Origin: Escherichia phage vB_EcoM-RPN187
Direction: 5' to 3' (one strand)
Sequence record: OL770074.2
Length of the DNA: 64,000 nucleotides
Shown here: piece after piece, positions 18,267 to 56,053 of the stretch
Position numbering within the stretch: the stretch's first letter is position 1
Layout of the letters: every line of letters begins with the position of its first letter
Position numbers and translations under genes: made by a program
Notes under the pieces: model-generated
Seen by the model: only the letters and a program-made list of their open reading frames with translations
The model's database searches: none
What the model was told of the DNA's origin: nothing

Positions 18267-18515
18267 TTATTCTTTTTCGCGAATAATAATTACTTGTTGA
18301 GGCTGCTGGGCAGATTTCTTTTCGGCAACGATAGACCAAATTAAAGTTCCAATCCAACCAACCATCGTCCAGTTAAAGAGTAAAGACACAAAGAAGATTG
18401 CTGTTGTGCTTTTTGTGCCACGAATAAGTGCGATTACCCAAGGCAACATGTAAATGATGATTGAACCAATACCTGCGATTAAAACCGCTACTGAACTAGC
18501 TACGAATAATTCCAT
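18267..18515 (-). CDS. hypothetical membrane protein (2 TM)
   Basis: 82 aa hydrophobic, ATG, SD GGAAA. Confidence 0.55.
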   Translation of the reverse strand: MELFVASSVAVLIAGIGSIIIYMLPWVIALIRGTKSTTAIFFVSLLFNWTMVGWIGTLIWSIVAEKKSAQQPQQVIIIREKE

Positions 18516-18543
18516 GTTAATTTCCTCTTGATTTGTTATGTTT

Positions 18544-18573
18544 ATAATATCTTATTTTAACTTTGGTGTAAAC
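18544..18573 (-). promoter_or_regulatory. early promoter: -35 GTTTAC, 18 nt, -10 TATTAT
   Basis: minus-strand read upstream of 18267..18515. Confidence 0.5.
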
Positions 18574-18576
18574 CAA

Positions 18577-18945
18577 TTAGTTAAATTTGTTTAAACGTTC
18601 AATACACTGGACGTAGTTATTTGCAATTTGTTTCTGGGTGGGCTCTTTACCAGTTGTTTCAACATAACGAATGAATGCGATTTCAGTAGCCTGTAGACAA
18701 TGTTCTTTAACACGTTGTTCTTTTGACAATGCTACAGTATCAGAGTCACGATAACGTTGAGCATAGGCATCAGCTTGAATCATTCGATTACCTACAGTAA
18801 CAGGGTCTTCCACTTCAACTTTAGGTTGGTCATACTGTTTAACATTCGGATTGTAAATCAGTTGGCCAACGTTATTAGGGATAAAGCCATGGGCACCACA
18901 TCCGGTTAATCCAAATACCATTGCTAAAGCGATTAATTTTTTCAT
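18577..18945 (-). CDS. putative lipoprotein
   Basis: 122 aa; signal peptide with lipobox LTGC. Confidence 0.6.
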   Translation of the reverse strand: MKKLIALAMVFGLTGCGAHGFIPNNVGQLIYNPNVKQYDQPKVEVEDPVTVGNRMIQADAYAQRYRDSDTVALSKEQRVKEHCLQATEIAFIRYVETTGKEPTQKQIANNYVQCIERLNKFN

Positions 18946-18973
18946 TTCAATTTCCTCTGTAGTTGATAGAAAG

Positions 18974-19003
18974 ATAGTAACACAGTATGTGGTGCTTGTA
19001 AAC
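18974..19003 (-). promoter_or_regulatory. early promoter: -35 GTTTAC, 18 nt, -10 TACTAT
   Basis: minus-strand read upstream of lipoprotein gene. Confidence 0.5.
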
Positions 19004-19015
19004 AGTTATTTAAAA

Positions 19016-19204
19016 TTATCGAAAATCTGCTTCAAAAACTTTCTCGTCATTAACAAATGCTTTAACTAATGCGTTGTTCACTTCAGCAAGTTGTACCGTA
19101 ACCCACTCGATTTCTTCGCGATCACCTGATAACATGATATCTTTAGTGAACATCTCGCCGCTTTTAAACCAACCGATAAAAGTAACTTTAGTTAATTTGC
19201 TCAT
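19016..19204 (-). CDS. dmd: Dmd-like antitoxin (discriminator of mRNA degradation)
   Basis: 62 aa from ATG (MSKLTKV) with SD GAGGA; FIGWFKSGEMFTKDI...AEVNNALVKAFVNDEKV matches recalled T4 Dmd; T4 position upstream of gene 41. Confidence 0.7.
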   Translation of the reverse strand: MSKLTKVTFIGWFKSGEMFTKDIMLSGDREEIEWVTVQLAEVNNALVKAFVNDEKVFEADFR

Positions 19205-19518
19205 ATTTCCTCGCAAAATGCCCATTCAGCGTGATAAACTGTAGCACCTTTAGTATTATTCATTTGAACTACGTCTACCGGAGAAATTACTCGATAGAGA
19301 CGTGGTTCACCTCCATAAGAGCGTGCTGCTCGTCCTGCATAAATCTTTGCTAAACCGATATCTTCAGTAAAGAATACACGATCCAAGTTTTTCTTACGTC
19401 CTGTTTCAGACAGAACTCCTGTTTCCTCAGGAGGACAAAGCATGTTTTCGATGTTAGCTGAACTACTTGAACCGTGATAAAAAATCTTAAATTCTGCTTT
19501 ACAATCGATGGTTTTCAT
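19201..19518 (-). CDS. hypothetical protein
   Basis: 105 aa, ATG, SD GGAG inside cassette stem. Confidence 0.5.
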   Translation of the reverse strand: MKTIDCKAEFKIFYHGSSSSANIENMLCPPEETGVLSETGRKKNLDRVFFTEDIGLAKIYAGRAARSYGGEPRLYRVISPVDVVQMNNTKGATVYHAEWAFCEEI

Positions 19519-52902: not shown

Positions 52903-53883
52903 TTATTTCAGTAAAGTTACTTCAGAGATTTCTTCCCAACCATCTTTATCAGTTGAAATAAAATCTGCTACATAAAGAGCCGTACGTAATGATACATTGC
53001 GAAGACGAGATACGTTAGCCTTCATCCAGGACAATGCTTTATACGTTTCTGCATCGGTCAGACCACGTTTCTGCATCATGTCAGTAGATAATATTACATC
53101 TTCAACTCGAACCATAATCTCTTCATTAGAGTGTACTCCAAGGTCGAGATACACCGAACGAGATACTAAAGCTTGAAGGTGTGGGGCAAGTTTCGAACCG
53201 CGTTCTAACTCTTTATCGATATCAACGTTTGTAATGAAAACGATAGTACCTTCAAACTCAAATTCTTTATCAATACCCTTATCATCGAGATAAGATGACG
53301 CAGTGCTCCAGCAAACTTTGCGTTTATCTCCAGTATCTAATGCTGCTTTAAGAAGGTTCAAGATGTCCATATCTGAGAATACGTCAACGTCGTCGATTAA
53401 GAGAACGCTGTCTGCATCACGGTTGAGCCAAAGTTGTTCGTAAAGGCCAATACCGGAGATTTTACCATTAATGCTTTTGTATTTGATGAAACCATTATCA
53501 TTAGCGTTATTAAGTGCTTTATCCAGAGAATACGTCTTACCAATACCAGCTGCACCTGAAATAATGAGTGAACGAATTTTGCCATCGATAATGCCATTCG
53601 TCATCATGTTCATTACTTTAAAGCGTTTGTTGATACGAGTTTTCATATCTTCAGTGCTTTCAACAACTGCAACTGGTGATGTCTCAACTCCTTCCATTAC
53701 GATGTCTGATTTGAAGACCCATACTCCACGTTCAGAACCATCAATCATAACGAAAATTTTACCATCACCTAAGTGGGAACATTCAGGATTAAGCTTTGCC
53801 GGGAACCATGTCTTTGTGGCGACATAAGAACCAGAGATTTCGTTATTACGATAGATACCTTTTTTGATTTGAACGTTGAACAT
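52903..53883 (-). CDS. P-loop NTPase (AAA-like) of unknown function
   Basis: Walker A GAAGIGKT, Walker B LLIDDVD; ATG (MFNVQIKKG) with SD GGAG chosen. Confidence 0.55.
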   Translation of the reverse strand: MFNVQIKKGIYRNNEISGSYVATKTWFPAKLNPECSHLGDGKIFVMIDGSERGVWVFKSDIVMEGVETSPVAVVESTEDMKTRINKRFKVMNMMTNGIIDGKIRSLIISGAAGIGKTYSLDKALNNANDNGFIKYKSINGKISGIGLYEQLWLNRDADSVLLIDDVDVFSDMDILNLLKAALDTGDKRKVCWSTASSYLDDKGIDKEFEFEGTIVFITNVDIDKELERGSKLAPHLQALVSRSVYLDLGVHSNEEIMVRVEDVILSTDMMQKRGLTDAETYKALSWMKANVSRLRNVSLRTALYVADFISTDKDGWEEISEVTLLK

Positions 53884-53921
53884 TTTATTCTCCAATTTAC
53901 TCATTTCGTTTCGATAGGTCT

Positions 53922-54280: not shown

Positions 54281-54562
54281 TTACTTATCACACTTAGCAA
54301 CATAATTAGGCATATCACAGAATACGGAGCGAGTAACTACTCGGCCCTTTGACCATGCTTCAGTTGCTTGTCCGGCTGTGCTATTGATATAGCTTGATCT
54401 AATGTTCTCAATACCCTGAGAATGTGATGCATTTACCGAACCATTAGAAGACCCAGAAGACTGGTTACCACCAGCTCCTGCGCTACCGCTGGCTGCACCC
54501 GTGGTAGCACCGACAGAGAATGCCATCATTACTGCGAATAAACCAATTACTAATTTTTTCAT
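54281..54562 (-). CDS. hypothetical secreted Gly/Ser-rich small protein
   Basis: 93 aa; signal peptide MKKLVIGLFAVMMAFSVGA; SD GAGGT. Confidence 0.5.
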   Translation of the reverse strand: MKKLVIGLFAVMMAFSVGATTGAASGSAGAGGNQSSGSSNGSVNASHSQGIENIRSSYINSTAGQATEAWSKGRVVTRSVFCDMPNYVAKCDK

Positions 54563-54593: not shown

Positions 54594-55583
54594 TTATTTA
54601 TAGTAAGAATTATGATTTTCGAGATAGACTTGTTCAAGGAAGTCATCCCAGAAACTCATATCTACTTTTTGTCGCATACCGTTCTTGGCAGCTTGTTCTG
54701 ACGCATGTTCAACTTGGTCAACGATATCTTCTAGGAATTCTTGTACAGTTTTAAACGTATGTTTACCAAGCTTAACATCGAGAATAAATGGAGCATCCTG
54801 AAGTGGGTAAACCAGGTCGCCGGTTTTATAAATTTCTAATAGTTGAAGTCCACCACGACATGCATGACTCAATGCTTTCCAGTCAATACCTTCGTTAGCT
54901 TCTGCCTTACGAGCACGTTCACCATAGTTCTCTTCCAGTTTAACCAGGATGGCATTGAACTCTTTATTGGTTAATGTGTCTTGGAATTTACGGTCTAACA
55001 GATTATAGAATGTTTGCTTACCTGTTTTCTCGTTTTCAGTTTCAACCCACGAAGCAAATTCACCTACAGGCAGAACATTCTTCATATGTGATAAACGAAT
55101 TACTGCACCATTATCAAAGTATTGTCCCCATTCATTAGAACGTTTAAGGGCTTGACGAAGAACAGCCAGTCGAGAACCCTTGACACCGTATTTAGAAGCT
55201 TGCTTACGGACATACCCTAAATAAGATTTCATGTTAGTGGTATAGAAACGAGACCTGTTATCTTGAATATACTTCCATACATCAGGCAAATCAGATTTAA
55301 CTACTAAACTTGGTGGAGTGTGAAGCATATCTAATGCGACGGTTTCACCATCCGCCGCTAATTTAAAGAAATATTTGAGACTATACAACTCATGGTCCAC
55401 GTCGTCTTTTGTGTTCTTAGAAGATGTGTTATTCGTGTTCTTGCTCATGTGTTCTTTAACGTTACCTGTCAAGATGTCACGAGCATGAGGGACATAAATT
55501 TCTTTAAAATCGACGTCAGATTCAGGAGTAGACGTTCCGTAAAGGTGGCTACCAAAGTAGCCTTTCATAATTGTTTTCATCAT
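54594..55583 (-). CDS. predicted nucleotidyltransferase (Pol-beta/minimal NTase fold)
   Basis: 329 aa; N-terminal GSHLYGTSTPESDVD fits GS-x(9-13)-DxD NTase signature. Confidence 0.55.
   Translation of the reverse strand: MMKTIMKGYFGSHLYGTSTPESDVDFKEIYVPHARDILTGNVKEHMSKNTNNTSSKNTKDDVDHELYSLKYFFKLAADGETVALDMLHTPPSLVVKSDLPDVWKYIQDNRSRFYTTNMKSYLGYVRKQASKYGVKGSRLAVLRQALKRSNEWGQYFDNGAVIRLSHMKNVLPVGEFASWVETENEKTGKQTFYNLLDRKFQDTLTNKEFNAILVKLEENYGERARKAEANEGIDWKALSHACRGGLQLLEIYKTGDLVYPLQDAPFILDVKLGKHTFKTVQEFLEDIVDQVEHASEQAAKNGMRQKVDMSFWDDFLEQVYLENHNSYYK
54595..54602 (-). promoter_or_regulatory. T4-type late promoter box TATAAATA (minus strand), about 33 nt upstream of 54281..54562 start
   Basis: exact match to late promoter consensus; overlaps 3' end of upstream gene. 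Confidence 0.45.
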
Positions 55584-56053
55584 TTAGCCTTATATTCAAG
55601 AGTAGGACAGATTTTTTCTTTACGAGCTTTAAGGTATTCACCTATTAATGATTTCTTACGTTCAATAGGTTCAAGTCCGTTTTTAATTCGTTCTTGGTTT
55701 TGCGCAATGAGCTCAATTTCTTTATAATATTTTCTGTCGTTATATTTGTCTAACAACCAAGACGGACCAATTACCAACCCGGTAGCAATAAAAGCCATGA
55801 CTGCTACCATTAAAATGCCTACACCAATTGAGGCCGGAACTAATGTCCATAGACTGCTAAAAACAAAGAATCTAGTTAAAATTTCCTGGCCAATGATTAC
55901 GACTGCTGCTAAAATAGCAAATCCGATAATTGAAACAGACAATACCGGGATTAACGTTTTCCAAAAATAAGCACACAACGTTTTCGGGCGATTCCATGTA
56001 CTATTGAACGCGGCATAAATTTTAAAGTGCCAAGAGTTTTCATTAATAATCAT
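55580..56053 (-). CDS. hypothetical integral membrane protein (about 3 TM)
   Basis: 157 aa, hydrophobic segments, SD AGGAA. Confidence 0.55.
   Translation of the reverse strand: MIINENSWHFKIYAAFNSTWNRPKTLCAYFWKTLIPVLSVSIIGFAILAAVVIIGQEILTRFFVFSSLWTLVPASIGVGILMVAVMAFIATGLVIGPSWLLDKYNDRKYYKEIELIAQNQERIKNGLEPIERKKSLIGEYLKARKEKICPTLEYKAK

Follow-up and report, generated by a model that had tools for sequence, protein, structure and literature searches.

An RlaP-family nucleotidyltransferase of a T4-like phage, with a possible role in RNA repair, and its overlapping membrane-protein gene

RNA repair was discovered in T4-like phages. In T4, polynucleotide kinase (Pnk) yields 3'-OH and 5'-phosphate ends, which are those required by the RNA ligases Rnl1 and Rnl2. 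Here we describe a gene that may contribute to such repair, encoding a nucleotidyltransferase (NTase) of 329 amino acids in Escherichia phage vB_EcoM-RPN187 (OL770074.2), together with an overlapping gene for a 157-residue membrane protein. The DNA analyzed is a stretch of 64,000 nucleotides from this record, called the window below, and all positions are given in whole-window numbering. The window is from a Mosigvirus, a T4-like phage of the family Straboviridae. Its sequence identifies the NTase as the T4 NrdC.11 ortholog and places it in the RlaP (PF10127) family, whose members are nucleotidyltransferases of the Pol-beta fold.

Two Pseudomonas RlaP enzymes, PfRlaP and PaRlaP, both encoded between rtcB and rtcA, were described in a December 2025 preprint (Carruthers, Fatma & Huang; PMC12776372). 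They add one or two nucleoside monophosphates or deoxynucleoside monophosphates to the 3'-OH of RNA; neither DNA nor protein is an acceptor, and E. coli proteins were left unlabelled (PMC12776372). RNAs of rRNA, tRNA and fragment size are labelled with all four nucleoside triphosphates (NTPs) and little specificity, with a cleaved tRNA mimic the 5' half is favoured, and Mn2+ is optimal (PMC12776372). Where one anticodon-loop nucleotide was missing from a tRNA prior to ligation, aminoacylation was partly recovered by RlaP, and the family was proposed as an antidote to nucleases such as RloC that cut and then trim (PMC12776372). The 3'-OH product of the reaction suits RNA ligases that use a 5'-phosphate (PMC12776372). 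In the sequence similarity network (SSN) of the same study T4 NrdC.11 is an RlaP of SSN cluster 5, marked 'unknown function', and the studied enzymes belong to cluster 1a (PMC12776372). A survey of jumbo phages found that the distribution of RlaP parallels that of RNA ligases (PMC7824862).

The NTase gene is located on the minus strand at 54594-55583, inside a long minus-strand run of accessory genes. A second in-frame ATG, at 55580, immediately follows the first and is the start in many database records, giving a product of 328 amino acids. The N-terminus of the protein reads MMKTIMKGYFGSHLYGTSTPESDVDF, in which G11-S12 is followed, after ten residues, by D23-V24-D25. The codons for this G11-S12-x10-D23-x-D25 motif occupy 55509-55553 (minus strand), and sequence and conservation together point to a nucleotide-binding Gly-Ser turn and two metal-binding aspartates. 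The initial annotation had noted the motif in a 329-residue open reading frame (ORF) and placed the protein in the Pol-beta superfamily. The motif is indeed present as described, and the superfamily assignment is borne out by a match to Pfam PF10127 (RlaP; score 48.8 bits, gathering cut-off 23, E 9.7e-13, residues 7-152), by conserved catalytic residues and by a predicted NTase fold.

The NTase is an ordinary, widely conserved phage gene, one that databases already list and that the literature has already named as an uncharacterised RlaP of phages. We found it by tblastn in 1567 phage records, mostly from T4-like phages (of enterobacteria, Aeromonas, Acinetobacter and Vibrio) with some jumbo phages among them, and when 1.8 billion cluster representatives were searched exhaustively, 3215 relatives were returned, 742 of them below 1e-30. 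The protein also matches phrog_388 ('nucleotidyltransferase') at 1.7e-126, and public databases contain a 100%-identical protein named 'DNA polymerase beta superfamily protein'. Given the 1567 records, the phrog_388 match and the identical database protein, the NTase is not a chance ORF. Near-identical proteins are variously named 'nucleotidyltransferase', 'RNA repair pathway DNA polymerase beta' and 'thioredoxin'. The last of these names, carried by many GenBank and UniRef records, is wrong and looks propagated from the naming of the neighbouring nrdC.

A first homolog search gave near-identical T4-like proteins only, and diverse homologs were taken from representatives of 50% identity clusters. 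The conservation alignment consists of 49 representatives at 33-52% identity (alignment numbering +1 to the 329-residue form), every one of which matches PF10127. Ten residues are invariant in the 49 homologs (G11, G16, S22, D23, D25, Y124, Y132, R223, K236 and R243), and S12, D61, D63, D85, H240 and others are conserved in at least 90% of them. The catalytic residues of the motif, G11, D23 and D25, are thus unchanged across the alignment, in agreement with the enzymatic assignment made in the initial annotation. The D61-V62-D63 segment, encoded at 55395-55403 (minus strand) where the fourth beta strand begins, is likely, from Pol-beta-fold topology, the third catalytic carboxylate position, with D61 or D63 as the putative ligand.

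An AlphaFold2 (AF2) model of the NTase built from the 49-sequence alignment (pLDDT 93.5, pTM 0.83) consists of an N-terminal alpha/beta NTase domain (about residues 1-135), a helix/beta-hairpin insert with strands at 176-200, and a C-terminal helical domain ending in a long helix, 308-327. The strand at 61-67 holds D61 and D63, and D85 falls in the next helix. The Pol-beta signature, comprising an hG[GS] turn and three conserved carboxylates, is present on the expected strands of the model. No solved relative was found in the PDB by either single-sequence or 49-sequence profile search. A Foldseek search of the PDB with the model returned weak NTase matches only (ANT(4')/kanamycin NTase, 3c18 and HalB), all at E > 1e-3, and structures of cGAS, DncV and OAS were absent from the fold matches. 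The model has an NTase fold, in keeping with the superfamily named in the initial annotation, and the structure comparison lends nothing to the CD-NTase, cGAS and OAS classes also named there.

The genomic setting is that of the T4 accessory region between nrdC and tk. The region is 98% identical to Escherichia phages AV112 and AV113 and 97% identical to Shigella phage phi25-307. The region matches T4 in gene order: the gene for a P-loop ATPase similar to NrdC.10 is followed by two small ORFs, by the NTase gene and the membrane-protein gene, by a y05I/MobD.1-like gene and further small ORFs, and by an rI-like gene and tk. T4 NrdC.11 (NP_049709, 'nucleotidyltransferase') is 78% identical to the NTase over its full length, has the catalytic motif in common with it and occupies the same position, between the nrdC.10-like ATPase gene and the mobD.1/y05I-like gene. 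Identity falls to 43% in residues 146-215 compared with about 90% in the flanks. This segment (54939-55148, minus strand), delimited by block-wise identity and column conservation, is where the family is least conserved, and it corresponds to the inserted helix/beta-hairpin subdomain of the model (about residues 146-215). It may determine substrate specificity; it could be either a specificity module or a recombination patch.

Considering these observations together with the properties of the Pseudomonas enzymes, we think it more likely than not that the NTase restores nucleotides trimmed from nuclease-cut tRNA ahead of ligation by the Pnk/Rnl pathway. Some host anticodon nucleases, RloC among them, not only cleave a tRNA but remove a nucleotide from it. 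Healing by the phage polynucleotide kinase/phosphatase would leave a 3'-OH and a 5'-phosphate at the break. The NTase would then put back the lost nucleotide by template-free attachment of one or two nucleotides at the 3'-OH of the RNA, and the phage RNA ligases RnlA and RnlB would seal the break. The purpose of such repair would be counter-defence. Healing, adding back and sealing form a coherent pathway because the ends made by Pnk fit Rnl1 and Rnl2 and the product of RlaP is compatible with such ligases. The close relative phi25-307 has genes for a polynucleotide kinase, for RnlA and for a second RNA ligase at other places in its genome. Also in favour are the ProQ-C-like or HD phosphohydrolase genes that overlap the NTase gene in divergent T4-like phages, and the occurrence of the upstream membrane-protein family beside RNA ligases in other phages. 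Cleavage of tRNA with removal of a nucleotide, the damage proposed as the target of RlaP, cannot be reversed by the classic T4 Pnk/Rnl pathway. If NrdC.11, which is present in more than 1500 sequenced phage genomes, does complete T4 repair, it would close a long-standing gap and would help to explain how phages survive nucleases of the RloC type. The initial annotation had suggested a signalling or anti-defence enzyme; the signalling part is not upheld, and the anti-defence part is retained here in another form, as putative repair of RNA cut by host nucleases.

Several points weigh against gap filling in tRNA. The RlaP repair model is itself a preprint proposal that faces a problem of fidelity, as most additions would insert the wrong nucleotide (PMC12776372). 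Both assayed enzymes, PfRlaP and PaRlaP, lie outside the T4-type subfamily. The PF10127 alignment covers only the N-terminal 130 or so residues of the NTase (profile positions 23-148 of 249), and the C-terminal half together with the variable insert may confer a different substrate. The closest solved structure, HalB, synthesizes oligo-dA and is not an RNA repair enzyme. No RNA ligase gene was found within several kilobases of the NTase gene, and in phi25-307 the genes for Pnk, RnlA and the second RNA ligase are some 55-85 kb from it. As the NTase is not adjacent to an RNA ligase or Pnk, the ligase-associated context that defines RlaP is absent here. Finally, the nrdC.11-mobD.3 region can be deleted from a genome-reduced T4 that is viable on laboratory hosts (PMC9825161).

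The same evidence bears on other functions that the NTase could have. The enzyme might tail the 3' ends of host or phage RNAs in general or maintain tRNA 3' ends, for example by repairing CCA ends that host toxins have attacked or by tagging host mRNA for decay, with no filling of anticodon-loop gaps. Such an activity would suit the wide range of RNAs (rRNA-, tRNA- and fragment-sized) and the use of all four NTPs by Pseudomonas RlaP (PMC12776372), the lack of linkage between the NTase and a ligase in this phage, and the ProQ-C-like gene, whose name suggests RNA binding, that overlaps the NTase gene in divergent phages. However, the NTase has no CCA-adding or poly(A) polymerase Pfam match, and bacterial RlaP halts after one or two nucleotides and favours the broken end in the anticodon loop above the 3' end of the acceptor (PMC12776372), so that we regard tailing as unlikely. 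The CCA-adding/poly(A) polymerase class itself was rejected: PF10127 is the sole Pfam match of the NTase, and the 49 homologs add single generic NTase-domain matches only. The protein is not a housekeeping enzyme of the CCA-adding or poly(A) polymerase type, a homology that would have spoken against the initial annotation. A further candidate activity is AMPylation of a protein or small molecule in the manner of ANT/KNTase or MntA enzymes, for instance to neutralize a defence protein of the host such as a HEPN-type RNase. The matches to such enzymes are all weak: the Foldseek E-values exceed 1e-3 with TM-scores of about 0.3, and the score of the MntA model is 12.9 bits, far short of its cut-off of 60. 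PF10127 is found consistently in all 49 homologs, and the characterised RlaP enzymes left E. coli proteins unlabelled (PMC12776372). We therefore consider AMPylation decidedly improbable. The MntA antitoxin class was rejected on the score of its model (NF047752), and no HEPN toxin gene adjoins the NTase gene, whose neighbours encode a secreted Gly/Ser-rich protein and the membrane protein.

The fold match to HalB and the overlapping membrane-protein gene bring to mind a pair resembling, or counteracting, the Hailong defence system, in which oligodeoxyadenylate or another oligonucleotide made by the NTase would gate the membrane protein or keep host HalA closed. We consider this pair very improbable. 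No link to HalB was found at the sequence level by single-sequence or profile search, DNA is not an acceptor for bacterial RlaP (PMC12776372), and the membrane protein has 157 residues and two transmembrane (TM) helices and is not a channel with a cytoplasmic crown. Moreover, T4 and about half of the sampled phages with the NTase have no membrane-protein gene nearby, and many phages have the membrane-protein gene without any NTase. The Hailong assignment was rejected on the membrane component, as the model of the membrane protein gave no match to HalA, nor to any other PDB structure (best E = 6). Lastly, we give hardly any credence to a CD-NTase, cGAS-like or OAS-like enzyme that makes or mimics immune second messengers: the resemblance is confined to the GS...DxD motif shared across the Pol-beta superfamily. 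The PADLOC defence models returned no match and no such structure was among the fold matches, and the CD-NTase/OAS/cGAS-like and MNT classes entertained in the initial annotation are accordingly set aside. Restoration of trimmed tRNA ends remains the function that we favour for the NTase.

The membrane-protein gene (55580-56053, minus strand; 157 amino acids) is upstream of the NTase gene on the coding strand. Its TGA stop codon, at 55582-55580, overlaps the NTase ATG at 55583-55581, and the resulting ATGA stop/start overlap (55580-55583, minus strand), which is read directly from the sequence, is ...AAGGCTAAATGATGAAA... The initial annotation had the relationship reversed, with the NTase stop overlapping the start of the membrane-protein gene. 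An AAGG Shine-Dalgarno-like motif is present a few bases 5' of the NTase ATG. Judged by the arrangement of the codons, the ATGA overlap is of a form typical of translational coupling, and the same kind of -3 overlap occurs in 11 of 23 related IMG/VR loci. We detected no promoter specific to the pair: no MotA-type middle promoter was found upstream of it, and scans for sigma-70 promoters and terminators were at background (17 found against 15 expected).

A match to phrog_944 (1.5e-52) assigns the membrane protein to that family; in Pfam it matches none. The initial annotation had described it as having multiple TM segments; it is a membrane protein, and the number of TM helices is two, with hydropathy maxima at about residues 33-56 and 70-100. 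In the AF2 model (pLDDT 86) long helices span 26-62 and 68-124, and there are short strands at the N- and C-termini that could pair according to the model. Both termini are predicted to be on the same, cytoplasmic side, and the tail is charged and rich in Lys, Arg and Glu. Diverse homologs have in common the motifs S7-W8-H9, C27-x-Y29-F30-W31 just before the first TM helix, and K145-x-K147-x-C149-P150 near the C-terminus. No PDB structure, HalA included, matched the model with better than E = 6. By tblastn the protein is found in 1204 phage records, including phages that are not T4-like, such as Vibrio phage ICP1 (gp169), Pseudomonas Pakpunaviruses and Kuraviruses.

T4 differs at this position. 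An HNH homing endonuclease gene, mobD, is upstream of nrdC.11 in T4, compared with the gene for the two-TM protein upstream of the NTase gene here, and we found no homolog of the membrane-protein gene in the 38-62 kb region of T4. The mobD gene (18430-19209 in locus L001) occupies the exact place of the two-TM gene in this phage, in T2, in T6 and in many others. The homing endonuclease appears to have replaced the membrane-protein gene in T4.

We examined 80 IMG/VR loci carrying the membrane-protein gene. An RlaP NTase gene is downstream on the same strand in 23 of them, directly adjacent or overlapping in 11, and most of the others have one or two genes between (a homing endonuclease in one case). 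In five Pakpunavirus loci the membrane-protein gene is followed by a gene for an Rnl1-type RNA ligase and then by one for a P-loop kinase. A protein with PHA02142-OB and RNA_ligase domains is encoded next after the membrane-protein gene in six loci and upstream of it in one more. Single loci have a Pol-beta-like NTase gene or, in ICP1, a P-loop kinase gene as the next gene, and Rnl2 and NAD-dependent DNA ligase each occur once as the second gene downstream. When the membrane proteins are grouped at 50% identity, RlaP or an RNA ligase is encoded within three genes in 17 of 51 clusters, which are not independent of one another. Roughly estimated, by inference and not by a computed test, some three independent direct adjacencies among about 25 lineages, against a background of about 1.4% per lineage, correspond to p ~0.006.

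A reverse census was made of 80 loci carrying the NTase gene. The membrane-protein gene is upstream on the same strand in 40 of them, and the NTases of these loci are all at least 57% identical to the present one. Among divergent T4-like loci (L135-L143 and L171), a Phage_ProQ_C_like gene (PF24203) overlaps the NTase gene upstream in eight and a gene for an HD-domain phosphohydrolase overlaps it downstream in five. Divergent NTase genes are also found near genes for the salvage of nicotinamide adenine dinucleotide (NAD), with NMNAT-Nudix in 13 loci and NAMPT in 10. Genes for SPFH proteins and C5 DNA methylases flank divergent NTase loci as well. With no homolog of the membrane-protein gene in the T4 region searched and none nearby in about half of the sampled NTase loci, the NTase can evidently do without the membrane protein.

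We inspected the membrane-protein gene in six more metagenomic contexts. Its neighbours are small or uncharacterised ORFs in five, and in one it directly precedes genes for phosphoribosyl pyrophosphate (PRPP) synthetase and NAMPT. These six contexts, and the many phages in which the membrane-protein gene has no RNA-repair neighbour, weaken its association with RNA repair. The link between the membrane protein and RNA-end enzymes is suggestive, a lead and not a finding. The protein may partner RNA-end-processing enzymes, but we doubt that phrog_944 is a dedicated and previously unrecognised partner of phage RNA-repair enzymes. Were this the case, it would imply a membrane-tethered module for the healing and sealing of RNA ends, for example at the site of entry of nuclease toxins or near membrane-bound anticodon nucleases. 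The recurring pairing of a two-TM protein that has no Pfam family with phage RNA-repair enzymes is the sole element described here that goes past current annotation, and it may be new.

Three of the loci that carry a membrane-gene homolog are described here individually. In a Pakpunavirus (L004, 2924-8399) the homolog heads a run of genes for Rnl1, a P-loop kinase, PRPP synthetase and NAMPT, so that genes of RNA repair and of NAD salvage, the latter associated with counter-defence, travel together. In a metagenomic phage (L088, 5001-8181) the homolog directly precedes the genes for PRPP synthetase and NAMPT. In an uncultivated phage of 150 kb (L008, 4478-5509) it is followed by a gene for a 343-residue protein with the sequence GDIDVLV, which matches phrog_24943 ('DNA polymerase') and no Pfam family. 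Probably it is an NTase of Pol-beta type distinct from the present one and encoded at an equivalent position.

Other features of the window were noted around the NTase gene. A T4 late-promoter motif, TATAAATA, is present on the minus strand at 54595-54602, within the 3' end of the NTase gene. It stands just ahead of a 93-residue ORF (54281-54562) that has a hydrophobic N-terminus, is rich in Gly and Ser, and matches phrog_2243 and, weakly, YbgS. The NrdC.10-like P-loop ATPase (333 amino acids; 52903-53904, minus strand) matches phrog_1250 at 1.1e-161 and has weak Pfam matches of the AAA/STAND type, and its gene is kept beside this region across T4-like phages. No tRNA genes were found in the window.

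Among the known systems with which the NTase can be compared, class II CCA-adding enzymes and poly(A) polymerases resemble it in template-independent addition to RNA 3' ends and are functional analogues in tRNA repair. However, their C-terminal domains are unlike that of the NTase, and neither the NTase nor the 49 homologs match their Pfam families. The ANT(4') kanamycin nucleotidyltransferase and the NTase-like structure 3c18, the best Foldseek matches, have a similar two-domain build of NTase and helical domains. They differ in that the matches are weak (E about 2e-3, TM-score about 0.3, 8-11% identity) and that these enzymes adenylylate small-molecule antibiotics. HalB of the Hailong system (PDB 9dbh and 9dbj) is 16% identical to the NTase and has no sequence-profile link to it. 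It is a protein of about 217 residues that makes protein-primed oligo-dA and is encoded in a bacterial defence operon, whereas the present NTase is from a lytic phage. The HalA channel, which is tetrameric and gated by oligonucleotides, has no similarity to the membrane protein described here.

The present NTase differs from PfRlaP and PaRlaP in its location outside an rtcB/RNA-ligase operon, in its extra, variable helix/beta-hairpin insert and in that only its N-terminal half aligns to the Pfam model. The crystal structure of PfRlaP has an N-terminal NTase domain and a C-terminal helical domain, the final helix of which packs back on the NTase domain. With these enzymes the NTase of vB_EcoM-RPN187 shares the Pfam match, the Gly-Ser turn, the DxD motif, a further conserved aspartate and, in its predicted model, the succession of an NTase domain and a helical domain.

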